Source of the DNA: a virus
Direction: 5' to 3' (one strand)
Length of the DNA stretch: 64,000 nucleotides
IMG/VR virus record: IMGVR_UViG_3300020159_001521
Coordinates: 1-64,000 of that record
Shown in pieces: positions 5,469 to 27,244 of the stretch (positions are counted from its first letter, which is position 1; each line of letters opens with the position of its first letter). A program made the position numbers and the translations under genes. The notes beneath the pieces are model-generated. The model was not told the DNA's origin, ran no database searches, and saw nothing but the letters and a program-made list of their open reading frames with translations.

Positions 5469-8069
5469 TTAATCTAAATTAGAAAAATCGTAATTGGGAT
5501 ATTGATTTCTTAGAAGCTTCATTAAAGTTACATCTGTTAATGCATTTAAGTTCTTTTTTCCTTGATCATATCCCACTCTTTGTAACTTGTCGGTTCCTGA
5601 TATCTCAAATGTCTGATATCCACCATCTTTTCTCTTTACATTAATCATTGCTGTGTAAAGATTAGCATCACTGAGGTCTTGATTGAGATCTGCTGTAACT
5701 TGGTATTTACTTATTCCAGGGAAGTCTCCAAATTGTTTTTGCATTGTTGCTTTGGTTGGATCTCCTGTTATATTGGTATTACCTTTACCAATATTCACTC
5801 TGATAGATTCTTGAGTTTTGTCATTTACATAACCAGCACCAAAGTTCCTAACAACATCATTTCTGCTCAACTTCAAAATTTGTCTATTTGAAGGATCAGA
5901 CTCACTCTTAAGATGAACTCTAAAGTTATCACCATCTTGTTCAATAAACACTCTAGTGTCTTTTTTATTTTCCTCAAGAAGCATAGCTGACGCTTTTTCC
6001 AAGTCAAACTTACCATCAGCTGCTATTTGATTTACATCAGCAGCAGTGAGCAGTTGACTAAGTCTTGAAAGAATAATTGGAGGTGGTTCGCCATTCTTGC
6101 CTGTAGCAACAGCTTTAATTTGTGGAACAAATTCTTGAGCTATTGGTGCAAGTTTTTGTGTATATCTGTCTTTAACAGCATTCTCGTAATTTCCTTTAAA
6201 GTCTTTATATTTATTCAAGTATTCATGAACTCCTAATAAAATCGGTCTAAGTTCTTTTCCTCCAACAACATCTGCACCAAAAGGTAATGTTTTTGATTTA
6301 TTTAATTCTATTGTACTAGGTTTACCATTAACCATATAAGTGAGCTTCATGTTTCCAGCAACAGCTCTATCTACAGATAGAGTAGCTTTTCCTGATTCTA
6401 TATCTTTTACAAGCTGAGATGGTGTAAGATTTATTGGTTGACCAGAAACTTTAATTTGTACTGATTTATTTTGACCGTCTAATTTAGTAAGATCGTCTTG
6501 ACTTCTCTTAAGTTCACTTAAATACTTAGGATCTCTCAACACTTCATTTATAGCATCATTTTGTAACTGCTTTTGTTTTTGTTCAAGAGCAGATAGATAG
6601 TTCTTGTTTTTGGCAATGTTTTGAATTAGTTTGAGAGCATCTGGTTTAACCTTTGTAGCTTTTACAGTGTTCTCTTCCCAATCCTTTAACATGTCATTTA
6701 TTTGAGCATCTGTGTATTTTGTTCTAAGTTTAGTAATATCACCATCTACAGCATCTGCTACAGACGTAACATGTTTAGTAAAATGCTCCTGTGCTCTCAG
6801 TTCATTATCTGTAACATTACCCATAGGAGTCCAATCACTTAATGATGGATCTCCATATAATTCAGCTTTCTTCAAAGCATTTGCTTCTGCATCAATTTGT
6901 AGTTTTTGAACAGCTAAACCATAATCTCTTTCAGATTCATATCTACGTCTGTTCTCAACTTGTTGATTAAACTTCATAGTCTCAACCCAATTAAGCTGTT
7001 GTCTAATTGGGTTAGATTCATAACTTACTATTTGATTCTTCCAGGAGAATGCATTTGAAAATTCACTTATAAACCCATCTTTGTATATAGATGATTTTAC
7101 CTGATCTGGATTATTTTTAGCAAGCTCTACATTTGATTTAAGACTTTCATCAAGAATACCAGGAACACCATCTTTACCAATAAGAGTTTCGTAGTATTTA
7201 ATTTGATTATCAATCTTGTTTCCTTCAGTGGGGTCAGTTACAATTCTTTTCTGTTCAAGAAGATAATTAAGAGATGTCATTGCATTCTTCTTCTGTACAG
7301 CATAATTATCCACTGCCTTTTTTACAAGTTGTTCAGGAGTGACACCTCTGAATTGGTATCTTCCACTTATAGAAAGTTGGTTAAGATCGTTTTGGTCTAA
7401 AGAGGACACTATAGCTGCTTTAATCTGTCCTTCATCAATACCTTCAATCTTATATCTTTTCATGGCATCAGCAATAACTTTTGTATCCACTGTACCATCG
7501 TCATTCATTTTAAACGGAACATCGTATTGCTGAAGCTTAGGGTGAAGAGCTTTAATAGCCTCCATTGCCTTTTTCTTTACATCTATATACTGTGTATACC
7601 TACCGTTGAATGATTGTTTTAAGTCTGTTGAGTATAACCAATTGTTTGCCTTCTCACTAAAATCCCATTGATTCTCAACAGAAGATTTCCCTTCAGAAAT
7701 AGCTTTTTCCATTTCTGCTAATTGCTTCCTATAGAATGCTGTAGAACTTACAGCATTTCTTACAGTGGGATCTTTGGCAACTTGTGTCACCATTCCTCCT
7801 ACAGAATTGACAAGTTGCATATTAGAGAAGTCTCCAGCAGCTACTTTCTTAAGGTTGTTTCCTAGATCATTAAGTTTTGATTGGAGATATCCTTTGTCAA
7901 CGTCTCTAATTACATCCAATCCAGCAACATTATCTATGTATCCCTGGATTTTCTGTACTCCCTCTTCGTACTTCTGTTGCTTGTACATACCCACTTGAGC
8001 CATTGCTTCTAAGGGCAATTGCTGCACGTACGGGCGAGATTGTAATATGGTATCGGTAAAGCTTGCCAT
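5469..8069 (-). CDS. Virion cargo/ejection protein (866 aa)
   Basis: Long helical ORF between the 1038-aa cargo gene and the giant gene; N-terminus PYVQQLPLEAM..VGMYKQQKYEEG resembles crAss-like cargo proteins; synteny. Confidence 0.6.
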   Translation of the reverse strand: MASFTDTILQSRPYVQQLPLEAMAQVGMYKQQKYEEGVQKIQGYIDNVAGLDVIRDVDKGYLQSKLNDLGNNLKKVAAGDFSNMQLVNSVGGMVTQVAKDPTVRNAVSSTAFYRKQLAEMEKAISEGKSSVENQWDFSEKANNWLYSTDLKQSFNGRYTQYIDVKKKAMEAIKALHPKLQQYDVPFKMNDDGTVDTKVIADAMKRYKIEGIDEGQIKAAIVSSLDQNDLNQLSISGRYQFRGVTPEQLVKKAVDNYAVQKKNAMTSLNYLLEQKRIVTDPTEGNKIDNQIKYYETLIGKDGVPGILDESLKSNVELAKNNPDQVKSSIYKDGFISEFSNAFSWKNQIVSYESNPIRQQLNWVETMKFNQQVENRRRYESERDYGLAVQKLQIDAEANALKKAELYGDPSLSDWTPMGNVTDNELRAQEHFTKHVTSVADAVDGDITKLRTKYTDAQINDMLKDWEENTVKATKVKPDALKLIQNIAKNKNYLSALEQKQKQLQNDAINEVLRDPKYLSELKRSQDDLTKLDGQNKSVQIKVSGQPINLTPSQLVKDIESGKATLSVDRAVAGNMKLTYMVNGKPSTIELNKSKTLPFGADVVGGKELRPILLGVHEYLNKYKDFKGNYENAVKDRYTQKLAPIAQEFVPQIKAVATGKNGEPPPIILSRLSQLLTAADVNQIAADGKFDLEKASAMLLEENKKDTRVFIEQDGDNFRVHLKSESDPSNRQILKLSRNDVVRNFGAGYVNDKTQESIRVNIGKGNTNITGDPTKATMQKQFGDFPGISKYQVTADLNQDLSDANLYTAMINVKRKDGGYQTFEISGTDKLQRVGYDQGKKNLNALTDVTLMKLLRNQYPNYDFSNLD

Positions 8070-11294: not shown

Positions 11295-13403
11295 TTAATT
11301 GTATTTGTCTAACCAACCACCGTTTTTCTTTTTCTCAATTAGTTCTTTTGCATATTTAGGAACAGCAAACCTTTCGTAGTCTTCTGGTTTGATGTATGTT
11401 GTATCTCCCTTCTGATTAGCAAATCCTATAAGAGCACTTGGTAGCCCACTTCCTGTTCCTGGAGAATACACAGGGCTCCCTTCATATATGTTTTGTTTTC
11501 TTTCTACAGGTTTGGGTTGTTCTGTTTTCTTAACAGGTTGTTCTTTCTTAGATTCAACTGTAGACTTACTAATAGGTTTAGAATTAGGTTTATTTATAGG
11601 TTTAGGTTTTGGCTTTGGTTTAGACTTAGAAACAACAGGAGGTGCAGTAGGAGGTGTTTTTAGTGGAACAGACTGTTTGTTTACTGTAGACAGTGCTCCT
11701 TGATTTTTCACATTGTTTTTAACATAATCGTCTGTAAACTTATTCCAAATTTTCTTAACACCACTTTCTAATTTATCATTTACATTTTGTAAAGATTTTC
11801 CTATATTAGTTTTACCTATAGCGTTGTTAATGTCACTTAGTTTAGAACCAACATTATCCCAAAAACCGCTTACTGGTTCATATTTTTCCCAAGGATCCAT
11901 TTCGGGATATTTATAGCTTGGTATTCTATAGTTTTTACCGCCTACAGTAACATTATCATATGATGTTGGTTTAACATCAGAAGTGTTATTTATAAGATTT
12001 TTATTTCGTGAAATAGATTGATCTACTGCTGAACTGTTTCTTGTACGAACTGCATCCCACAAAGCTTGAGTATAATCATATGTGTTTACAGAATCTAAAT
12101 AACTGTTTCCCATTTTTTTAAAATCACTCATTGGTATTTTTATTTTTTTACCACTTTGAGCAATAGGGTATTCTGTAACTGATTCACCATCAAACTCATA
12201 TTCTTCTCCAGGTTCCATATATTGTACATCTCCTGTATCAGAAATACCAATGAGAGGTTCGTACACTCCTTCCATGGTTATTTGGTTAGAACCTATTTCA
12301 ACAGGCTCTCCCCAGTTCTCTGGGTTCCAATAGCCCATGTCATCCTTCTTTATCTCTCCACCCTTTTCGTATTTCTTACCTCTAACAGCAGCATCCAATT
12401 GATCTTGAACATACATGTAAGGAGCAGAACGATATTGATAACTTTCTTTCGATAATGGTATAGCTGACGCACTGTAGAATTTATCTTGCTTAAGATGTTC
12501 TGGAACAGCTTTCAGTGATGTAGTTTTTCTTGGATATAGAAATCTATTCCTTGGAACTATATATTCATTAGGATTAACAGATTGTCTTTGTGCTTCCTTG
12601 AGAGCAACAACATCCTCATCAAACTTTACACTCTTCTTCCAAAAAGGAACTTTATATTCAGTGAGAAGCATATCCTCCCCTGTAACTAAACCAGGTCTTC
12701 CACCTGGTATATCAACACCTTTTAAATATTGAAATGCTTCGTCTAAGTCTTTAGTTGTCCAATCTCCCTTCTCATATACTTTTTTAGAAAGATCACTACT
12801 CTCATATCCCAAAACATTCTTACCAGGAACTTGTGCCCTGTATGTTCTGGTAGGATAGATAATGTCATCTACACCTTTAGCCATTTTAGCTCCTGCAAGA
12901 ATATTCACAGGATCTAAAATTAGGTCTGTAACAAAAGCCCCAGCTTTATTCTGAATACCCATTGCTTCAGAAGGTTTCTGATATTTACCAGATATAAGTT
13001 TAGTCAGAGCTTTTTGAGGAGCAGAAAGTACTTCTCCTACATTTTCAGCAAACTTTTGGTATTGTTCTGTTGTAGGTAAAATACCAATACCTAATTGAGC
13101 TTGTGGTATCTCACTTCCATCTTGACTTATGTTCTTTGGTTTCCAATCTAGTCCTTCTTGGTAGAATTTCATTTCTCCACCATCCTGTGCACTAGCTTTT
13201 GTCTTCTTAGCATAAGGACCATTGCTAGGAGCAGGGTTCTGCGTACGTGCGTACATGAATCCTACAGAACCAGGGAGAGATCCTCCTGTTTGCATTGTTC
13301 CACCCCATGCACCATTATAATTAAAGCCTTGGTCTGTTAAGCCATCCATTGTAGCTTCTATACCATTTTCAGCTTCTTTATATTTGTCTAACCACTTTTT
13401 CAT
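11295..13403 (-). CDS. Modular virion cargo protein with internal ADP-ribosyltransferase-like domain (702 aa)
   Basis: WLDKY at both termini; x[QE]xG(G) motifs; internal TYRA...GDWTTKDLDEAFQY...NEYIVP ART-like signature; Pro/Lys-rich linker. Confidence 0.6.
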   Translation of the reverse strand: MKKWLDKYKEAENGIEATMDGLTDQGFNYNGAWGGTMQTGGSLPGSVGFMYARTQNPAPSNGPYAKKTKASAQDGGEMKFYQEGLDWKPKNISQDGSEIPQAQLGIGILPTTEQYQKFAENVGEVLSAPQKALTKLISGKYQKPSEAMGIQNKAGAFVTDLILDPVNILAGAKMAKGVDDIIYPTRTYRAQVPGKNVLGYESSDLSKKVYEKGDWTTKDLDEAFQYLKGVDIPGGRPGLVTGEDMLLTEYKVPFWKKSVKFDEDVVALKEAQRQSVNPNEYIVPRNRFLYPRKTTSLKAVPEHLKQDKFYSASAIPLSKESYQYRSAPYMYVQDQLDAAVRGKKYEKGGEIKKDDMGYWNPENWGEPVEIGSNQITMEGVYEPLIGISDTGDVQYMEPGEEYEFDGESVTEYPIAQSGKKIKIPMSDFKKMGNSYLDSVNTYDYTQALWDAVRTRNSSAVDQSISRNKNLINNTSDVKPTSYDNVTVGGKNYRIPSYKYPEMDPWEKYEPVSGFWDNVGSKLSDINNAIGKTNIGKSLQNVNDKLESGVKKIWNKFTDDYVKNNVKNQGALSTVNKQSVPLKTPPTAPPVVSKSKPKPKPKPINKPNSKPISKSTVESKKEQPVKKTEQPKPVERKQNIYEGSPVYSPGTGSGLPSALIGFANQKGDTTYIKPEDYERFAVPKYAKELIEKKKNGGWLDKYN

Positions 13404-13406
13404 TAC

Positions 13407-13955
13407 TTATACAATTACGTGATTCCATTTAAGATTCTTAACAATATCATAGACAAAATGATACTTTTTATTATACATCTTTGCTATCTTTGAAACAGAA
13501 AGATTGTTATACTTGTAAAGAATTTTTATTTTAGCAACCTCTTCTTCATTAGTTTTAGCCATAGGATTTTTTGAACCACTAATGCAATTGTTCCTCCCTT
13601 CTTTATGCATTTGTTGTGCATTATCTTTGCAAGTTCCCCATTTAAGATTTTCTAACTTATTATTCAACTTATTATTATCTAGATGCATGGAAACTTCTCC
13701 ATCTTTAGGCATTCTGTCAAAAGTCATTAACACAATTCTATTTATTCTAAAAGTCTTTAACTTTTTATCTTTGTATAAATTTACATGATAATACCCAGAA
13801 GGAGACAATATTGGTTTTAACGTTTCCTCTGGATATGTTCTAAAATATCCTTTGTGTTTTTCTACCCACACTTTACTAGCTAATCTTTTTACATTTCCTA
13901 AATTGCTAACTTGATAAAGTTCTTCATATCCAGGAACATTATTCCAAATTTCCAT
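13407..13955 (-). mobile_element. Free-standing NUMOD4-HNH homing endonuclease
   Basis: EIWNNVPGYEELYQVSNLGNVKR (NUMOD4) and MHLDNNKLNNKLENLKWGTCKDN (HNH_3); C-terminal HTH; AT-rich insert between structural genes. Confidence 0.9.
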
Positions 13956-13961
13956 ACATTA

Positions 13962-14831
13962 TTATTTATAACTTATCATTGTACTTGTAACAACAAATTG
14001 ACTTACAATATGAATGTCTGACTTGTCATCTAATGTGTGACGAATTTTAAGGTCCTTGGCCATTATTGGAGATTTCTTAAAGGATCTCTTACCATAATCC
14101 ATATTAGCTTGATTAACTATTTTATCTATTGACATTGATTGACAGCTGTTTGTGAATAAAGGTACTGTCTTGCTCTTAATCAATGACCAGAATGTGTTGT
14201 ATTGATAGAAGTTGTCGCTCTTTGTAAATGTAATTGTTTTACTCTCATCATTATACAAAGGATACTTCATGTATTGGTTGAGGTTGTTCAATGGTTTAGG
14301 AACAAGCTCAAGCACTCCTGATGATTGCTGACCATTGTACAAGACTGCTTTATTGAAATAGTGTTGGTCTGTCTCCACCTTCTGATTGTCGTTAAATACA
14401 CCATCTGCACTTTGTATATATCTATACACCTTGCTATAGTCTTTTACATTCTGCAAGATTTCATCTTGGTATTTGTATGCAAAAGGATATTCAATAATGT
14501 ATGGATGAATACATCCATAGAACTTATTGTAAATAACTGGATTAGTAAGATGTCTCCAGAGAGATGCTGTGTTGGTGTCTTGAAACTGTATAGCTGCAAG
14601 TTCCTCCACTGTAGCTGTTCCTATTGGAATGTTTATCGATGTTGTGCAACATGTGTACAGAGACTTTATGACAATCACCTTTACATCATCATCCACACTG
14701 AAGGTGATGCCGCTTATTATATTTTCCTTAGACACATTAGTAGAAAGAACAACTCCTTTATCATCTAAGATTTCAAAAGGACCTGTTCTTCTACCAGCGC
14801 TTGTGAGTTTTATAATGATTGTCTTAGCCAT
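13962..14831 (-). CDS. C-terminal part of split muzzle/tail stabilisation protein, preceded by an LTxAGxxTGPF domain
   Basis: SLWRHL..IYNKFYG..PYIIEY continues the sequence pattern that normally follows WxSFHSYxP in this family; first ~70 aa are homologous to the N-terminus of 14845-15456. Confidence 0.6.
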   Translation of the reverse strand: MAKTIIIKLTSAGRRTGPFEILDDKGVVLSTNVSKENIISGITFSVDDDVKVIVIKSLYTCCTTSINIPIGTATVEELAAIQFQDTNTASLWRHLTNPVIYNKFYGCIHPYIIEYPFAYKYQDEILQNVKDYSKVYRYIQSADGVFNDNQKVETDQHYFNKAVLYNGQQSSGVLELVPKPLNNLNQYMKYPLYNDESKTITFTKSDNFYQYNTFWSLIKSKTVPLFTNSCQSMSIDKIVNQANMDYGKRSFKKSPIMAKDLKIRHTLDDKSDIHIVSQFVVTSTMISYK

Positions 14832-14844
14832 CTACATTTTACAT

Positions 14845-15456
14845 TTAACAAGTTCCTTGATTATCACCATTAACAGTGAAATAGAAAGTTCTTGTATTCA
14901 CATTAGTTATCAAAAACCATGTACAACTTAGAGCTGAGAAAGCAGGACATGTTGTTATGTCTCTTGCACTCTGCCATGTGATTCCTGTATTACCATTTGT
15001 AGTAATCTTAACAGCAAGAGAAGAGTTTCTCTGTACATTCAACACTGCTCTTTGTACACAACCTGTATCGCTGAAAGCTGCACCTGTTGCTGTCCAACTT
15101 ATTCCTCCATCTTGTGAATAAGCAAATTTCAATGCTGGAAAAACTGATGCTGCTGGATCATGTCTTGCGTACAATATAATCTGAACCAAATCTTGAGAAG
15201 TGGTAGTGGAAGTGGTACTGGTGGTTATACCAGCAATTGGTAAGTCTACAAAATTAGTACACAAAATACTTGTTGACCTCACCCTAACAACTGTTGCTCC
15301 ATCAGGAACAACTGTTGATGTATATCCTGCTAAAAGAGCTGCTCTAGAAACTCCTGTTTGAAATGGTGTTACAAATCCGTCAGCGTTTGAAAACAAATTA
15401 AAAGGACCTGTATCAGCTCCTGCGGTGGTTAATGTTAATATTACTGTTTGTGGCAT
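14845..15456 (-). CDS. Tail accessory/adhesin-like protein (LTxAGxxTGPF domain, Thr linker, Asp-box domain)
   Basis: MPQTVILTLTTAGADTGPF..., TTSTTSTTTS linker, YSQDGGISW Asp-box (SxDxGxxW). Confidence 0.55.
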   Translation of the reverse strand: MPQTVILTLTTAGADTGPFNLFSNADGFVTPFQTGVSRAALLAGYTSTVVPDGATVVRVRSTSILCTNFVDLPIAGITTSTTSTTTSQDLVQIILYARHDPAASVFPALKFAYSQDGGISWTATGAAFSDTGCVQRAVLNVQRNSSLAVKITTNGNTGITWQSARDITTCPAFSALSCTWFLITNVNTRTFYFTVNGDNQGTC

Positions 15457-15467
15457 ATTAGAAAGTT

Positions 15468-18400
15468 TTATGAAATTATAGCTATTTCAGCAGTTCCAGC
15501 AAGTGCACAATTTGCTAACACTGTAGTTGTACTAGTGGTGGTTGGTGGAACAAACGTTGCTGTTCCTACTAATCTACAATCTCCCACTCTAGCAGTTCCA
15601 GCAAGCGTACACACGGGTGTACGTGTAGTTGTGCTAGTTGTTGTGGTTGTAGGAACTTCTTGTACAGCAATTGCGTGTAAATCACATCCCTCATTCAATC
15701 CAGAATAGAAGAAGTTATTTTCAGCAATGTACCAGTTTGGAATGTAGCTATGGAAACTCACCCAACTGTTTGTGTTTAAGTTGAATGATAGAGTCCAAGA
15801 CTTATTACAAAAATACGTAGTATCAGTTAAATAAACAACATCACGAACAGTGGTGTAAAACAGACCTTCTGTAGGTAGTAGATACTGTGTCTCGATATAG
15901 AACTCATTTGTAGCAGCATCATATTTGATGTCGTTTCTCAGAGGAATATAATCAAGCTTAGTTATTATTATCCTTTCATACTTACTATCAAACACACCAT
16001 GTAATCCAACACCATTAAAATGGTTGTCGCTAGGAACATTTGGATAGTAGCGTAGTATTTCGAAAGCAAGATGGTCTGTAAAGAATCTGTTTAGTCCTGA
16101 ACCAAAGCCTGTCAAATCTTGTGCACTGTTTCCTGAAATAAGAAACACTTGTCCTCTCTTAGCATCAATTGTTAGCTGTCCTTGAGGAATCTTTAACAAC
16201 ATCTTGTTTTGACTTCCTACATAACCAAGGTCTGTTTCTGCGAAATCTACAGGAGGCGAGCTTCTGAACAGTGTATCGTTTCCTATGTATGCAGCTTGAG
16301 GATTGCTTGTGTCAATGGTCAACATTGTGTTGTACAACAAGCTCTTGTTCTCAAACCTAGCAAGCACAGCTCTGTTTTGTATACCATCCAGACTGGTCAG
16401 CTTACCATAGTTCTGTGGGAAATCAAAGAAGCTAATTGGTCTGTAAATCAACCAACTGTTTATTCTATTATCTGTAAAACTTTGTTGCCTATCAGAATAT
16501 ATTGCTCTGAAGGGGAAGTTTGTAAAGCATTGATTAGCATCCCAGTTTATAGGAAGATGTGTAAAGAAGTTCTCTTTGTTTTGCTTTGAATATGTTGTAT
16601 TGTAATAATACGTGTTATCAAATGCAATGCTAACGTTAGTTTCCTGGAACCAATCATCAGGAATACCTGTGCTTACGTGTGGGAAGAAATCACCATCCGT
16701 AGTGTTGAATGCTTGTCTAAGATCAACGTTTACACTAGACTCACAATAGAATGTAGGAATGCCATAAGCAAACATGTACATCTTTCCATCATAATATGTT
16801 CTTCCAGGATTTAAAGCAGGTGGAGCAGGAAGTTGACTATTAGGACAATCAAAACTGTGAGCTTTGATTGATATAACATTTCTAAGTGTTCTAGGACTAG
16901 GAACCCCATCATCAACAACATAATCATACAGAATAGATCTAGCTGAATGCCAGTATTCTGGATAGGCTACATTACCAATCTCATCATAAAATACATCACT
17001 GTCATCAGGAGCTCCCACTCTATTGTCAATAAAGAATGGAAGTTTTGTCTTGAATGAGAACTCGTTTATAAACGTATCTCCTCCAAAAACTGTAACAAGT
17101 GGATCTGATTGTGCATCAACATTTCTTTGGAACCCTGTTTCAATTGTATCGTAAGAATAAATTTGACCCCACTGGTTAGTGAATATGTTCTTGATTGATC
17201 CATAATAGCATACAGTGGATATGTCAAACAGTTTTTCTGCTTGAGAGCAATTTAATTCAGGAGTGGCTGTAGGAGCATTAGAAACTATATATCTTGTCTT
17301 ATCTTCAACAAGACTGTATCCTCCTGAAGAAACAAGACTTGGTGTTTGACTTGGATATGGTAGAGGAGTTACATCTTCGTTAGTCTTAAGATAGACAGAA
17401 GACTCTCTCTGGTAGTTGTTGATATTACTGTTGTCTCCTGCAGATTGAACGCCAGGAACAAGGTATTGTTTTATATCAAGAGGTCTTTGCTTAACTCCCA
17501 GTCCATTATCAATTGTAGACCAATAGTCATAGCTGGCTATAGAATTATACGAATACCCATAATTCCTTCTTGTGATGCCATTTATATAAATAGTGAGATA
17601 GGATTGATATGCAGCAAACATTGCTGTAGCATCAAAATTGGTGCTAATGTTTCCAATCCCTTCACTAGAATCAAGCGCATCTTGTTGTGCTTGTTTACTC
17701 AACAGTTTGTACAAAGCATTGTCTTGTACTTGTACAAAGTGAGCAGAACCTCCACCATATACAACATTCTCAAGCTTCAATACGTTCCCAAGGAACGGTT
17801 GACCAAAAGATGTTTCTGGAGAATTAAATACGTGTCTGTATTTAGATTCATCTGTAGAGAATGCAGAAAGTCTATCTGGGTAACAAAACTCATTTGGTGA
17901 ATCAGAAGAATCACCAGTTTTTATAATTGTATACCCACCAATTGTAAATGCTACAGTTGGTACTGTAGGGATTTGTACTTGTAATATTCTAGACTGACCA
18001 AAGAATAGTGTAACGTATTCAGTTGTTCCAGTGAGTGCATCTACATATCCAAATTTTGTAGTGACACCATCAGCGCTTACACGATATGTGTCATATTGTA
18101 GTGCTATAGGAGGAGCAGTGAATGTTCCAGAAACAGCAACAGGCTTAGTGAGAGAACATATCTGCAACACCTGTCCTGCATACATTGCAGCGCTAACTAA
18201 TGTGTTTGTGTAACAATCTGTATATTCATAGAATCCATCTGTAGCGCACGTAGCATTGAATGTGACACACTCTCTGTTGTATGCATTATTCTTCTCAAGA
18301 AGAAATGGATCCTCTCTAAGATCATTGTATGGATAGTTGGGGAAATAATAATCTGTTCCTTCTCTGTTGTATTTTCCTACGTTCCTAAGGATGCCCTTAG

Positions 18401-20132
18401 CAACAACTGATTTATTTGTAGCCCTGTCACCACGAACAATCTTAAATCCAACAATAGCGTCTTTTTGAGCTTGTGTCAAATCAGACAAAGCTACGAATTG
18501 TTCAATCTGTTGAGAATCAACAAGAACACCAATTGGAAATATAGACCTGTCTTGAATAGTGAGATTTGCATATCTACCACCTAACGATATTGTAGGAGTG
18601 CCACTTTCAAATATAGGGCTCACTCTTACATCAGGGAACTTATGATGTCTAATTGGTTGATTAGCTAAGTCTCCCCACACTTCAGCGTTACATGGATATA
18701 CATCTGTAGATTCCCAATATGCAAACTCTCCATGTTGATGAGGAGTGGCGTTTCCAATATTATCTCCTACACCTGGTCCAATAACAGATGCTGTATTGTA
18801 TATTTTCCAATACTTACTATATCCTGTTCCTCCAGCTGTATAATCTGGTTCTCCTACAAAATCAGGATTTGTACTAGGAACATCAGGTTGTATAAGTTCT
18901 GTAAAAGATATTTCTCTTCCAGGGATATGAAATCCATCTGTTTGTTTTCCGTTCTTCAATAAGAAGACAATCTCAAATGCGTACACCTCATCCCTCAGAT
19001 ATCCTCTGAGGTTGGTGGCATTTAGTTCATCTGAATAGTTCTCATTTGCAGGAAGCTTATAAGTTTGCCATTTAAGACCTATCTTATTAGCAATCTTCTG
19101 ATAGTTAACTCTATCTATAGATGTAAGATTGTCCCAAACGATTAAGTCTTGTACAGCAGTTAAATCTTGTGCAATGTCGTAATATGGGAACTTCTCAAAT
19201 ATATCGTTGATGCTCAGTTGAATCTGAGTTTGATTCTGACCGTTGTATGTTATCGTGTTTACAGAATCATCTATAAAATATGTACCAACAAGTTCGACAG
19301 ATGTAATTGCATTCACTGTCTTTATTACAGCCAGATTGTAATATTCAAAATATCCTGTTACGTCTAAGTTAGATATGTCAACTATAATAGACTTTCCTAC
19401 AGGATAGTTGAAATTTGGTGTAACTATCTGTAAGTCAGCAATTGGTGTTGGGTTTGTTACAGAGTAGTATGATGTGTATGCATCTCCTGCAACATCACAA
19501 TATTGAATAGCAAACTGATAAGTGCCAGCAATAAGATTACCACCACTTATAACATCTATCACTCTTAAGCTAGGAATGCTAAAGTTTGGTTGTACGTTAA
19601 GTTTATTGCAATCGATTGTAGATGTTGTAACATTGTCACATACATCTGTACCAGGTTGTATTGCATAAGGTAGATTGTTTAAATCAAGATATCTACGTGG
19701 ATTTAAACCATCTGTCCAATAAATCTCTGTACTACAATTTGTTATCTTGTGTACGGATTTATGAATTGGATAGTTGATATTAAAGTTGAGACAAGGAGCG
19801 TTGATGTATGTCCTATAGACACAATCATTACCATCCATATATCCAATCTCAGACGCACCAGTGTTTGGGTTTGTCAGAAAGAATATATGCTTGCTCTGCT
19901 CATTTATTAGATGAGTTCCTATTAAGTGATAGTTTTCTGGAAAGTTTAGACACAACTCATTACCTGGCTCATTCTGATAGTTAACAGAATTAGCATCATA
20001 GTTTTCCAAAGAAGCGTTCAGTGCATAGGAAAGCTTACCCTGAGCTATCTGATTAACAGATGAGTCCATGTCAAGCCCTATTCTACCTACTGCTTGTTCT
20101 AATCTAATATTACCCGTTTCTTCTCCAGCCAT
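15468..20132 (-). CDS. Muzzle / tail stabilisation protein (P22 gp10-like), main part (1554 aa)
   Basis: GLDMDSS...LNA start, YWTDGLNPRRYLDL, GYLRDEVYAFEIVF, IRHHKFPD, GGDTFI, WVSFHSYIPNWY; follows the tail tubular gene as in crAss-like phages. Confidence 0.8.
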   Translation of the reverse strand: MAGEETGNIRLEQAVGRIGLDMDSSVNQIAQGKLSYALNASLENYDANSVNYQNEPGNELCLNFPENYHLIGTHLINEQSKHIFFLTNPNTGASEIGYMDGNDCVYRTYINAPCLNFNINYPIHKSVHKITNCSTEIYWTDGLNPRRYLDLNNLPYAIQPGTDVCDNVTTSTIDCNKLNVQPNFSIPSLRVIDVISGGNLIAGTYQFAIQYCDVAGDAYTSYYSVTNPTPIADLQIVTPNFNYPVGKSIIVDISNLDVTGYFEYYNLAVIKTVNAITSVELVGTYFIDDSVNTITYNGQNQTQIQLSINDIFEKFPYYDIAQDLTAVQDLIVWDNLTSIDRVNYQKIANKIGLKWQTYKLPANENYSDELNATNLRGYLRDEVYAFEIVFLLKNGKQTDGFHIPGREISFTELIQPDVPSTNPDFVGEPDYTAGGTGYSKYWKIYNTASVIGPGVGDNIGNATPHQHGEFAYWESTDVYPCNAEVWGDLANQPIRHHKFPDVRVSPIFESGTPTISLGGRYANLTIQDRSIFPIGVLVDSQQIEQFVALSDLTQAQKDAIVGFKIVRGDRATNKSVVAKGILRNVGKYNREGTDYYFPNYPYNDLREDPFLLEKNNAYNRECVTFNATCATDGFYEYTDCYTNTLVSAAMYAGQVLQICSLTKPVAVSGTFTAPPIALQYDTYRVSADGVTTKFGYVDALTGTTEYVTLFFGQSRILQVQIPTVPTVAFTIGGYTIIKTGDSSDSPNEFCYPDRLSAFSTDESKYRHVFNSPETSFGQPFLGNVLKLENVVYGGGSAHFVQVQDNALYKLLSKQAQQDALDSSEGIGNISTNFDATAMFAAYQSYLTIYINGITRRNYGYSYNSIASYDYWSTIDNGLGVKQRPLDIKQYLVPGVQSAGDNSNINNYQRESSVYLKTNEDVTPLPYPSQTPSLVSSGGYSLVEDKTRYIVSNAPTATPELNCSQAEKLFDISTVCYYGSIKNIFTNQWGQIYSYDTIETGFQRNVDAQSDPLVTVFGGDTFINEFSFKTKLPFFIDNRVGAPDDSDVFYDEIGNVAYPEYWHSARSILYDYVVDDGVPSPRTLRNVISIKAHSFDCPNSQLPAPPALNPGRTYYDGKMYMFAYGIPTFYCESSVNVDLRQAFNTTDGDFFPHVSTGIPDDWFQETNVSIAFDNTYYYNTTYSKQNKENFFTHLPINWDANQCFTNFPFRAIYSDRQQSFTDNRINSWLIYRPISFFDFPQNYGKLTSLDGIQNRAVLARFENKSLLYNTMLTIDTSNPQAAYIGNDTLFRSSPPVDFAETDLGYVGSQNKMLLKIPQGQLTIDAKRGQVFLISGNSAQDLTGFGSGLNRFFTDHLAFEILRYYPNVPSDNHFNGVGLHGVFDSKYERIIITKLDYIPLRNDIKYDAATNEFYIETQYLLPTEGLFYTTVRDVVYLTDTTYFCNKSWTLSFNLNTNSWVSFHSYIPNWYIAENNFFYSGLNEGCDLHAIAVQEVPTTTTTSTTTRTPVCTLAGTARVGDCRLVGTATFVPPTTTSTTTVLANCALAGTAEIAIIS

Positions 20133-23635: not shown

Positions 23636-23968
23636 TTATGGTGCAGCAGTTGTAGTGGTGCTTGTTGTTACACTACTACACTGTGTCAATAATGAACAAA
23701 GAGCTGCTAAATATCCAGGGTTTGTTGCCAATATGGATAACAAAGCTTGTGTAATTGCAACAGGAGTGATTTTAGAATCTATCTTTTGAAGAGCTGCAGT
23801 GAGCGTATCTTTAAATTGTACTCCTGACCCAGGAAGATTTGCTCCTGAATAATATACATAATCTGAGTTGATTGGATAGCCTAAGAACCCATCAGACACA
23901 CAGCCAGATGGATAGTAGGTGTAAACAATGTCAGCATTATAACAAGGCATTCCAGGTATACAAGACAT
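23636..23968 (-). CDS. Small Cys-containing tail/fibre-associated protein with Thr-rich tail
   Basis: INSDYVYYSGANL is similar to TSDKCVRYTGSNV in the upstream fibre gene; ends SVTTSTTTTAAP. Confidence 0.55.
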   Translation of the reverse strand: MSCIPGMPCYNADIVYTYYPSGCVSDGFLGYPINSDYVYYSGANLPGSGVQFKDTLTAALQKIDSKITPVAITQALLSILATNPGYLAALCSLLTQCSSVTTSTTTTAAP

Positions 23969-23978
23969 ATTGCTAAGT

Positions 23979-25037
23979 TTATGGGGTTGGAATATACATT
24001 ATGTAATAACAAGCAACAGATGGTTGAATATTTGCGTGTGCAAGACCACCTCCTGTAGAACCCATTGTTATTCCTGTGGTTGCTGTGCTTGTATTTAGAG
24101 TTGCTTGTACACCATCTCTTGCAGATTCACCTCCACCACCTGGTTGAATAGCTCCTTCAAACGTATGTGTATGACCAGGATCTGTTAACGGGTGATTGTG
24201 AGAAGGAATCTGAGTGATGTCGAGTGTTATAGAGTTGGCTCCAGCAGTTGTGAGCAATGAGTAGTTTGGATTACCAGCAACAGAAGGATTAACTGCAGAA
24301 CTAAGTGGTCCACCACCCATTCCTACAATAGCACCTACAGCAGTTCTACCACGTTTGTCAGGTGTACCATTGTTTCCGTTACAGAGGTAGATTTCTTGCC
24401 AATCACCAAGTCCTGCTCCTGTAACATCAAAGTTAGCAAGAGAACCGTAGTATTCTATAACAGTGTAAGGCACCATCTTTGTACGATATGCATTGGTTGA
24501 TGGTAAACTAGCTAGGTAGGCATTGATTAAACTATTTAATTCAGAAAGCTTTACATAGTTTGTGTCAACATCAAGTTCAAGAGCAGCAAGGTCTACACCA
24601 AGCTGGCAAAGCTTTGTAATCACTGCCTGCACTATATCATGCGTGTCTGAGGAGGCTGTAACGCCTGTCAAACAACCAATTGTATAGTTTGCATTGAGTG
24701 TTGTCAGCGTAGCATTTATACCAGTGACCTGTGTTTGCAAATTACATGCTGCTTTTACAAGAGCTGTAAACAGTTCTTTAGCAGAAGGATCTCCACACGC
24801 AGGGAAACATGGAGGAAGATATTGTGTAACTAGTGTACAATAATCACCAATTGGGATATTAATCTTTATTCCTGTTCCATTTAAGAATGAAACAACTTTT
24901 GCAATGAGAGACTGCTCAACAACGTATAAACTATCACCGTTATCGATTGCTAAGCTCTCAACATTACTTCCTGTATATCTAACACATTTGTCAGATGTTG
25001 TTTCTACACAGCCGTTATAACAATTATTACAAGCCAT
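23979..25037 (-). CDS. Tail fibre protein with collar-like domain
   Basis: YLCNGNNGTPDKRGR, LDITQIPSHNH, HTHT, GGGLAHANIQPSVACYYIM are tail collar/tip motifs. Confidence 0.8.
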   Translation of the reverse strand: MACNNCYNGCVETTSDKCVRYTGSNVESLAIDNGDSLYVVEQSLIAKVVSFLNGTGIKINIPIGDYCTLVTQYLPPCFPACGDPSAKELFTALVKAACNLQTQVTGINATLTTLNANYTIGCLTGVTASSDTHDIVQAVITKLCQLGVDLAALELDVDTNYVKLSELNSLINAYLASLPSTNAYRTKMVPYTVIEYYGSLANFDVTGAGLGDWQEIYLCNGNNGTPDKRGRTAVGAIVGMGGGPLSSAVNPSVAGNPNYSLLTTAGANSITLDITQIPSHNHPLTDPGHTHTFEGAIQPGGGGESARDGVQATLNTSTATTGITMGSTGGGLAHANIQPSVACYYIMYIPTP

Positions 25038-26074: not shown

Positions 26075-27244
26075 TTAAGGGATCAAAGTTGTAGTGGTTG
26101 AAGTGGTAGCCCAAATAGTGGTAGTGGTTGATGTAGTGGTTAAACATACAGAACCTTGTTCTACTGGTGTACCAAGAGCTTGTGTAAGAATATCACTTAC
26201 ACTTGTTGCTGCTGCTGAACCATTCTGAACAGCGATAATCACTGTGCTGTCTTGATGAATGTAATCACCCCAAGAGTAAGCTGACCTATCGTAATCATTG
26301 AACTTGATGTAATAAGTGTCATAAGTAACACCAGAAGACACCCAAGATTCAAAGTTTTCGTTGTAACCAGCCATCCTGTAGAGATGCTTCAAGTAACCAG
26401 CTTGGTAGCTGTAGTAGTTCTTTTCCAATTGTGCAATCTCATCAGATTGACCATAGGCATAAGAAGAACGTTGAACAACCTGAGCGTTAGCTACAAGATT
26501 ACAAGCATCAGCAACAATGAAGTCAGCAGTGGTAGCAGGACCTTCGTAAACGAAAGCACGGAACCACATCCTGTCATATTCCTGAGGGAAAGCTGCAACG
26601 TCACAAGGCTGACCATACTTGGTAAGAGGCTTACCAGTGATACGGAGGATTGCACTTGCGTTGTTACCCAACCTTTGGAACTGATAGAAGTTGTTAAAGC
26701 TAATGTCATCAGGGTTGATACCAGGAGCACTTTGCTGGAGAGCAACGATAATCTCGTCAATCAGAGCAGGAACGTTAACATCAGTACAAGGGTTAGCACC
26801 ACAATCGCAACAAGGAGCCTTTACAGTTACACTGCGAGTGAAACCATTGAAATACAGAGTGTCCAGGTAAGAAGAGTGTGCACGGAGAGTTACAGTTACA
26901 TCTTGACCACACTGTACAGTCCAAGAGGAGATGTCAGTGATTTGTGTCAGAGGTGTAGCACAACCAGTCACCTTGTACCACTCAGTTACATTGGAAGTAC
27001 ATCCAGAACCTGAAGGACAACCTTTGATTTTGTCAGAGCGCTTAGAACCTTGCAAGTAGGTGTTTACCCTACCTTGAGCAACGTAAAAATAAGGAGAAGC
27101 TGCAATAGTTCCAGCAGCTGCAAAGGTGTAGTCGCTTTTGAAAAAGCCAACTTTACCTGCTGTTAAGTCTTGCGTAGAACCGCTATTGGCAATTGTGCTG
27201 CCAACAGGAACCACGAAGAGCGTAGTTAAAGAAAAATCTGCCAT
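26075..27244 (-). CDS. Abundant structural protein (auxiliary capsid protein-like) with Thr-rich C-terminus
   Basis: Third gene after the MCP; codon bias similar to the MCP; ends TTTSTTTTIWATTSTTTTLIP. Confidence 0.6.
   Translation of the reverse strand: MADFSLTTLFVVPVGSTIANSGSTQDLTAGKVGFFKSDYTFAAAGTIAASPYFYVAQGRVNTYLQGSKRSDKIKGCPSGSGCTSNVTEWYKVTGCATPLTQITDISSWTVQCGQDVTVTLRAHSSYLDTLYFNGFTRSVTVKAPCCDCGANPCTDVNVPALIDEIIVALQQSAPGINPDDISFNNFYQFQRLGNNASAILRITGKPLTKYGQPCDVAAFPQEYDRMWFRAFVYEGPATTADFIVADACNLVANAQVVQRSSYAYGQSDEIAQLEKNYYSYQAGYLKHLYRMAGYNENFESWVSSGVTYDTYYIKFNDYDRSAYSWGDYIHQDSTVIIAVQNGSAAATSVSDILTQALGTPVEQGSVCLTTTSTTTTIWATTSTTTTLIP

Follow-up and report, generated by a model that had tools for sequence, protein, structure and literature searches.

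How can a phage tail-tip protein be divided between two genes, and what is the role of the domains added where it is divided? The question is raised by a 64,000-nucleotide stretch of viral DNA (the window; positions 1 to 64,000 of IMG/VR record IMGVR_UViG_3300020159_001521), in which the gene for a crAss-like muzzle protein appears to break off and to resume two genes later. The source genome is a complete phage record of 113,680 bp with terminal repeats, and freshwater and lake metagenomes from several studies hold near-identical contigs and others that are ~90-99% similar. Four closely packed genes, all on the minus strand, are concerned:

15468-20132, minus strand: muzzle-N gene (P0001), 1554 residues, of which 1-1481 are the conserved muzzle body and 1482-1554 an added tail.
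14845-15456, minus strand: accessory gene (P0002), 203 residues, comprising a socket domain, a Thr/Ser linker and a cargo domain.
13962-14831, minus strand: muzzle-C gene (P0003), 289 residues, comprising a socket domain and, after it, the C-terminal ~200 residues of the muzzle.
13407-13955, minus strand: HNH gene (P0004), 182 residues, a neighbor outside the system.

A sequence-only reading of the window had proposed that the muzzle is split, that P0002 and P0003 begin with the same domain (the socket), and that this domain binds short Cys-containing peptides (the plugs, of the pattern CxLxGTA) in the tail of muzzle-N; its statements about the sequence all hold, on the minus strand and at the coordinates given here. 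Our answer, in which we place somewhat better than even confidence, is that the tail, the sockets and their cargo may together form a modular system for docking at the tail tip.

P0001 was recognized as a crAss muzzle by Pfam family PF25731 (crAss_MUZ; 109.9 bits versus a cut-off of 27, E value 1.4e-31), and it also matches PHROG 37948, "virion structural protein" (E value 3e-107). The protein departs from the family pattern after ...NNFFYSGLNE(1481). Up to residue 1481 it aligns with an unsplit 1654-residue protein of Leptolyngbya phage Lbo-JY46, up to residue 1457 of the latter, and residues 84-289 of P0003 align with residues 1456-1654 of the same unsplit protein (E value 9e-23), the muzzle continuation SLWRH...YNKFYG...YIIEY beginning at residue 84-89 of the 289-residue open reading frame (ORF). 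In Flavobacterium phage FpV4, a single large structural protein has the P0003 match at its C-terminal end. Colinearity with PF25731 to the C terminus is not attained by P0001 alone and is reached only when residues 84-289 of P0003 are added to residues 1-1481 of P0001. Because the two parts are jointly colinear with an unsplit protein, the muzzle is split, as had been proposed, and alignment of both parts to an unsplit muzzle, which had been put forward as the check, established the homology of the 289-residue ORF to the muzzle C terminus. On these alignments the split of the muzzle gene is judged to be real and seamless, the inserted material consisting of residues 1482-1554 of P0001, the whole of P0002 and residues 1-83 of P0003, and the PF25731 member encoded here is best described as a two-gene version with added modules.

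The muzzle of PhicrAss001, gp44, is hexameric and located at the tail tip; the length of the muzzle varies through insertions, disulfide bonds occur in the tail, and intermolecular disulfides stabilize the PhicrAss001 tail (PMC10172136). The protein described here belongs to the same family as gp44, by a Pfam match above the cut-off, but consists of two polypeptides, of which the first ends in a free, hypervariable tail and the second begins with an added domain; gp44 itself is too distant to have been reached by a sequence search of the PDB. From the domain order of gp44, the split site probably falls in the C-terminal β-propeller blades (PMC10172136).

The split is not peculiar to this genome. 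P0003 has 2688 homologous protein clusters of ~289 residues, with full coverage in all of the 120 listed, and 416 confirmed IMG/VR loci carry P0003 homologues, 80 of which were fetched for genomic context. Wherever the split-point motif could be located in these 80 loci, the upstream large ORF breaks at the same site, and among relatives 0, 1 or 2 small socket-headed genes lie between the two muzzle genes. No longer proteins (507-2000 residues) containing the muzzle-C socket were found, which is weak evidence. Because the split is conserved, it is taken to be functional.

Damage could also produce a broken gene, either by a mobile element or by an assembly error, or the ORFs could be fused after all by an intron or by recoding. 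The first of these has an agent at hand in P0004, directly downstream, which matches NUMOD4 (E value 7.5e-14), HNH_3 (23.9 bits, just below the 24.8-bit cut-off) and PHROG 59 (HNH endonuclease, E value 3.9e-36) and is by these matches a free-standing HNH homing endonuclease. However, the same split is found in thousands of relatives, in most of which a large ORF lies directly after muzzle-C with no HNH gene there, and the endonuclease is therefore not the cause of the split. Contigs from independent freshwater and lake studies bridge both gene junctions unchanged, with the gene order preserved and no instance of a join across the insert, which argues against an assembly error. An RNA-family scan of positions 13000-16200 gave no intron or ribozyme, only a chance match (E value 0.4), and a conserved recoding site is excluded by the variation among relatives in intergenic distance and in the number of intervening genes. 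Explanations of this kind are thus regarded as extremely improbable, and the two-gene muzzle is, to judge from its recurrence, a conserved and widespread design and not damage. The clade that carries it consists of freshwater crAss-like phages in which the muzzle is split permanently at one surface site; its host phylum is probably Bacteroidota. Among cultured or deposited phages there was no match to P0002 and no record covering at least 80% of P0003, and a full-text literature search found no account of this split, the plug motif or the socket domain.

The tail that follows the split point in muzzle-N contains the following elements:

15666-15686, minus strand: junction peptide CDLHAIA (residues 1483-1489), immediately following the split point.
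15624-15650, minus strand: Thr/Ser linker 1, TTTTTSTTT (residues 1495-1503).
15591-15611, minus strand: plug 1, CTLAGTA (residues 1508-1514).
15558-15578, minus strand: plug 2, CRLVGTA (residues 1519-1525), 11 residues after plug 1.
15522-15542, minus strand: Thr/Ser linker 2, TTTSTTT (residues 1531-1537).
15489-15509, minus strand: plug 3, CALAGTA (residues 1542-1548), ending 6 residues short of the stop codon.

An RVGD stretch lies between plug 1 and plug 2. When the 113,680-bp genome was searched with the pattern C-x-[LIVMF]-x-G-x-[AIV], it was found only in the P0001 tail, apart from one match in the muzzle body, and this confinement is no chance effect. Because Cys was fixed in the search pattern, its constancy in the plugs is not a result. 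The junction peptide, with the consensus N-x-G-C-D-L-(E/H)-A-I-A-x-x-E-(I/V)-P, was present in every tail in which the split-point motif was located (42 distinct sequences), with an invariant Cys and with Glu (50% of sequences) or His (17%) as the fourth residue of the peptide. Cys (position 0), Leu or Ile (+2), Ala (+6) and a hydrophobic residue (+7) are common to the junction peptide and the plugs. Beyond the split-point motif, the tails are hypervariable, ranging from 17 residues (L052) to ~800 residues in intact ORFs (L038), with the longest (L041, ~1700 residues) in an ORF that runs off its contig; they comprise Thr/Ser linkers, small Cys-rich modules, larger domains and CxLxGTA-type peptides, of which as many as eight conform to the strict pattern. 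Tandem plugs spaced 10-14 residues apart are common in relatives.

The domain at the start of the other two proteins is encoded as follows:

15232-15456, minus strand: socket of P0002 (residues 1-75), with invariant G13, F19, G44 and C66.
14607-14831, minus strand: socket of P0003 (residues 1-75), with conserved Cys 61/62.

The N-terminal domains of P0002 and P0003 are 35% identical over 74 residues (E value 4e-13), so that the proposed homology between the starts of the two ORFs is borne out. A profile (A1) made from an alignment of 34 sockets found exactly two sockets in the genome (P0002, E value 3e-31; P0003, E value 7e-32) and, among 1.8 billion representative proteins, 2153 clusters. The socket occupies residues 1-79 in every one of the 150 best hits, which range in length from 75 to 491 residues; it is followed by a Thr/Ser linker in 122 of them, and a plug-like motif is present in only 2. 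This layout suggests that the socket acts as an N-terminal adaptor. The sockets have a single invariant Cys, located where the last strand begins. A Pfam scan of the 34 sockets gave no family match, and nothing meaningful came from sequence searches of solved structures with P0001, P0003 and profiles A1 and A3.

AlphaFold2 models of both sockets have six strands and one short helix, with block values of the predicted local distance difference test (pLDDT) of 75-90 over residues 1-80 of P0003 and 72-90 over residues 1-70 of P0002, and the socket is accordingly predicted to be a six-stranded immunoglobulin (Ig)-like sandwich. A fold search with the P0003 socket returned only general sandwiches of the Ig or fibronectin type III (Fn3) kind, with Z-scores of 4.3-5.4. 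The best match is 8gl8_D, a C-terminal domain of a type 9 secretion substrate (Z-score 5.4, root mean square deviation (rmsd) 2.7, 66 residues aligned, 21% identity); a second type 9 secretion structure, 8glk_D, has a Z-score of 4.7, and the structure neighbors of the socket in the Atlas include a viral Por_Secre_tail cluster with a weak template modeling (TM) score of 0.65. Such fold scores could arise simply because the arrangement is a common one.

The position of the junction peptide and of the muzzle-C socket on either side of the divide also brings protein trans-splicing into consideration. The junction Cys would then start a short N-intein, and the muzzle-C socket, which ends in Asn87 and is followed by Thr88, would be the C-intein, much as in atypically split inteins whose N-fragment is very short. 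Such a reading would account for the invariance of the Cys directly after the split point, for the conservation of Asn87 in at least 90% of sequences and for the invariance of Thr88, and the chain left after excision of everything between would be colinear with the unsplit homologue. However, Asn87 and Thr88 align with the unsplit protein and thus may simply be muzzle sequence. No conserved His is present in residues 1-87 of muzzle-C or in the junction peptide that could stand for the block B His (TxxH) of inteins, and neither Pfam nor a profile search of solved structures turned up an intein or Hint family; the predicted Ig-like sandwich, with only Ig/Fn3-like folds in the search, points elsewhere as well. 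In L052 the junction peptide and the socket together amount to only ~100 residues, and the accessory sockets have no extein to join. We consider trans-splicing very unlikely.

In the docking system that we favor, the socket of muzzle-C would clasp the junction peptide (GCDL[E/H]AIA) of muzzle-N, and the CxLxGTA peptides of the tail would serve as docking sites for the paralogous sockets of small accessory proteins, here P0002. With six subunits to a muzzle, each could then hold several copies of exchangeable cargo on flexible stalks, in an array of what would probably be adhesins that make the initial contact with particles or with the surface of the host, and the cargo would be exchanged by recombination, either as modules fused to the tail or as socket-tagged genes. 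A speculative mode of binding has the plug peptide lying as an edge strand beside the last strand of the socket, perhaps with a disulfide between the invariant Cys of the plug and the invariant socket Cys at the start of that strand. Candidate socket-binding peptides are CTLAGTARV, CALAGTAEI and GCDLHAIAVQEVP. In its most specific form, in which the CxLxGTA peptide and the 75-residue socket would be a natural peptide-tag/catcher pair with a docked strand and a disulfide lock, serving as both clasp and adhesin hanger, the proposal is a doubtful one.

The link between plugs and sockets is drawn in part from their joint occurrence. At least two sockets are present in all 57 plug-bearing records, which comprise this genome, L041, five complete or near-complete relatives with the accessory gene located outside the interval between the muzzle halves, and another 50 records. 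The four plug-less records all have the muzzle-C socket only and no accessory socket; they are L038 (genome G006, 100% complete), L052 (G007, 99%), L027 (53%) and L021 (22%), and all four contigs cover both of the usual accessory sites, the regions of G006 and G007 having been inspected directly. The plug-less state requires three changes on the muzzle-C tree, in three separate lineages. In many plug-bearing records the accessory gene is ~9 kb upstream of the plugs, directly after a fiber-stub gene, and physical linkage therefore does not account for the co-occurrence. Thus the plugs and accessory sockets do co-occur across genomes, which the sequence-only reading had named as a check. The placement is also complementary, with plugs in muzzle tails and sockets on other proteins. 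Docking is favored too by the likeness of the junction peptide to the plugs, which parallels the homology of the two kinds of socket, and by the invariant Cys of the junction peptide and of the sockets, given that intermolecular disulfides occur in the PhicrAss001 tail (PMC10172136); the split nozzle of phage A1002 is a precedent of known structure (PMC13730344).

A further line of evidence is provided by L021, in which the C-terminal 116 residues of muzzle-N, fused via a Thr/Ser linker, are 72% identical to the cargo of P0002. This covalent fusion of the same cargo to a muzzle tail in another phage places the accessory protein at the tail, as had been suggested, and because L021 has neither plugs nor an accessory gene, fused and docked cargo look like alternatives at the same place. 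Prediction of a complex of the tail, the muzzle-C socket and the accessory socket (alignments A2, A3 and A1) gave values of 0.07 and 0.15 against a mark of 0.32, and thus no verdict.

Several observations weigh against docking on the plugs. The test of co-occurrence rests on three independent plug-less lineages, and two of the four records are partial genomes. Plugs and accessory genes are unequal in number, with 3 and 1 in this genome, 8 and 1 in L010, and ~3 and 4 in G031. The spacing of 10-14 residues between tandem plugs is tight for two 75-residue domains and would fit a β-hairpin formed by the plugs themselves. The clasp is also open to doubt, since complementation of the propeller blades alone could hold the muzzle halves together, and the muzzle can be split without a clasp. 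In L054 (L054:1148-7876) and L072 (L072:1042-7882) the muzzle is in three pieces; the extra break follows ...KEFYIEE and is succeeded by its own Thr linker and cargo, and the next gene restarts just ahead of ...YFCNKSWTLSFN, without a socket domain. Because this upstream split lacks a socket downstream, a clasp is no general requirement for splitting the muzzle.

The same inequality of numbers and the same fit of tandem plugs to a hairpin would be expected if the shared N-terminal domain were a virion anchor for another site, in the muzzle body, a ring protein or the fiber stub, and the plugs were unrelated to it, forming hairpins, disulfide staples between the six tails or direct contacts with the host. 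A conserved N-terminal anchor and a variable C terminus are the general rule for phage receptor-binding proteins, and the layout of the socket proteins agrees with it; the position of the accessory gene right behind the fiber-stub gene in many relatives, far from the plugs, also suits an anchor and counts against docking. Such an anchor leaves unexplained, however, the absence of the accessory gene from three plug-less lineages and its presence in every plug-bearing record, as well as the fusion of the same cargo to the muzzle tail in L021. As to the fiber stub, one with a Thr end exists without an accessory gene in G006, and here without a socket gene behind it. An anchor at another site is, on balance, rather unlikely.

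The socket proteins are diverse in their cargo. The cargo of P0002 is encoded as follows:

14848-15195, minus strand: cargo domain of P0002 (residues 88-203), a β-sandwich.

The AlphaFold2 model of P0002 (mean pLDDT 84.9) has two domains joined by a disordered linker (residues 77-88), with a pLDDT of ~90-95 for the sandwich (residues 89-203). The best fold match of the cargo is CBM41 (Z-score 7.0, rmsd 3.3, 88 residues aligned), a weak likeness to carbohydrate-binding modules; Foldseek with the P0002 model against the PDB gave nothing at an E value of 0.001 or less. P0002 had been described as bearing an Asp-box, for which there is only a sub-threshold match to Pfam BNR (E value 0.0034, 17.6 bits versus a cut-off of 27). 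Thus in the interpretation first offered for this locus, the split, the homology of the domains, their co-occurrence with plugs and the location of the accessory protein at the tail are upheld, whereas the Asp-box is not supported above threshold. With a cargo only weakly like carbohydrate-binding modules in the model, a role of the system in host range would be an extrapolation.

Approximately 27 clusters match the whole of P0002, and others match the socket only (60-73% identity) and have different cargo. Socket cargo in relatives includes small Cys-rich modules that are also present in muzzle tails. One socket protein from the metagenome library (P0264) has an ice-binding-like β-helix as cargo (PF11999, E value 3.9e-36). 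Five sockets are present in G031 (the genome of L036; L087:3112-4365), one of which heads a 417-residue protein whose cargo, with repeated S-x-D-x-G-x-(T/S)-(W/Y/F) of the BNR/Asp-box type, is probably a β-propeller. Two others in G031 are of a variant type (LGPNFNL), and the tails of this lineage have plugs with an extra residue (CTLTAGSA). A pairing of extra-residue plugs with variant sockets was considered from their co-occurrence in one lineage and rejected because L053 and L069 do not conform and because the pattern cannot be told apart from shared descent. L005 and L007, in which muzzle-C is nearly identical, differ alike in all three plugs (CxLAGxA versus CxLEGTA; tails at ~6025-6363), and their accessory sockets (genes at 6386-6991) differ at 8 of 75 positions, several of them beside the invariant Cys; these differences could represent co-adaptation or one recombination tract over both.

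Other genes in the window also have Thr-rich ends. P0005, a 389-residue virion protein (26075-27244, minus strand), ends in two Thr tracts (...CLTTTSTTTTIWATTSTTTTLIP), as does its homologue in G006 but not that in G007, and Thr tracts at free C termini seem to be a general habit of the clade. P0006 (110 residues; 23636-23968, minus strand) resembles an N-terminal tail-fiber anchor and stops after a Thr tract (...TTSTTTTAAP). In relatives this gene encodes 102-108 residues and is followed directly by a socket gene (G005), encodes 108 residues and has nothing behind it (G006), or encodes a full fiber of 451-619 residues (G001 and G007; in G031, 598 residues with collagen-like G-T-S repeats). 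The C terminus of the fiber stub (C-S/T-L-x-x-x-C before the Thr tract) was considered as a docking partner for the sockets and rejected, the same ending being present in genomes without an accessory gene. The start of P0008 (352 residues; 23979-25037, minus strand) bears a Cys-rich motif resembling the one in P0006, and the C-terminal part of P0008, judged by eye, looked similar to a phage tail-collar fiber protein. At the other end of the locus, P0004 is wedged between muzzle-C and a 702-residue protein; L027 and L046 have ORFs of similar size there (182 and 173 residues), and in the sequencing runs compared, contigs of other lakes diverge downstream of ~14074. Three of these runs (X2-X4) had hardly any coverage of the HNH region, which carries no information.

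Among systems of known structure, the split nozzle of Pseudomonas podophage A1002, which comprises nozzle-rope gp39 and nozzle-base gp42, is functionally the closest solved case. The rope has 11 docking sites for fiber dimers, arranged along a folded fiber-dock domain, and the binding has been solved (PMC13730344). In both systems a tail-tip function is divided over two polypeptides that complete each other, which for the muzzle is suggested by conservation, and the muzzle tail may match the rope in being a long stretch along which fiber proteins from other genes dock at repeated sites. The likeness meant is one of function, and the sites differ: in the muzzle the putative sites are Cys peptides of 7-10 residues between Thr linkers, and their partners have a 75-residue Ig-like adaptor.

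The arrangement may also work like the cohesin-dockerin system, to which it does not belong. Dockerins are duplicated Ca-binding modules of ~70 residues, and cohesins are jelly rolls of ~150 residues. As cellulosomes do, the muzzle system would match a scaffold with repeated sites and Thr-rich linkers to partners with one docking module and varied cargo; what is repeated in the muzzle tail, however, is a short peptide, and it is the cargo protein that has the folded module (75 residues, six strands). The muzzle system is not assigned to this family or to that of A1002.

Donor-strand complementation in the chaperone-usher pathway and the SpyTag/SpyCatcher pair are instances in which a small Ig-like domain is completed or locked by a peptide strand of another chain. 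The weak fold matches of the socket include CnaB2 (Z-score 4.6), SpyCatcher (4.3-4.4) and a FimD complex (4.5), all in the range of a common arrangement, and the lock proposed here would be a disulfide in contrast to the isopeptide of SpyTag/SpyCatcher. Por_Secre_tail domains are the best, though weak, fold match of the socket, and the likely host phylum uses type 9 secretion; they differ in being C-terminal, whereas the socket is N-terminal in the 150 best hits and none of the 34 members matched Pfam.

Even without binding between sockets and plugs, the annotation matters, because the 289-residue "hypothetical protein" of these genomes is the C-terminal part of the muzzle, and the socket family, with more than 2000 clusters at 50% identity, has no Pfam entry. 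If the peptide and socket are a tag/catcher pair, thousands of freshwater phages would use it to clasp the halves of their muzzles and to hang exchangeable adhesins. If docking is correct in its general form, a very small peptide-domain pair would be added to the known modes of tail assembly and could serve as a tool, cargo could be provided in trans by means of a standard adaptor as well as by fusion to the tail, and a large uncultured freshwater clade would vary the display at its tail tip without touching the essential fold of the muzzle.

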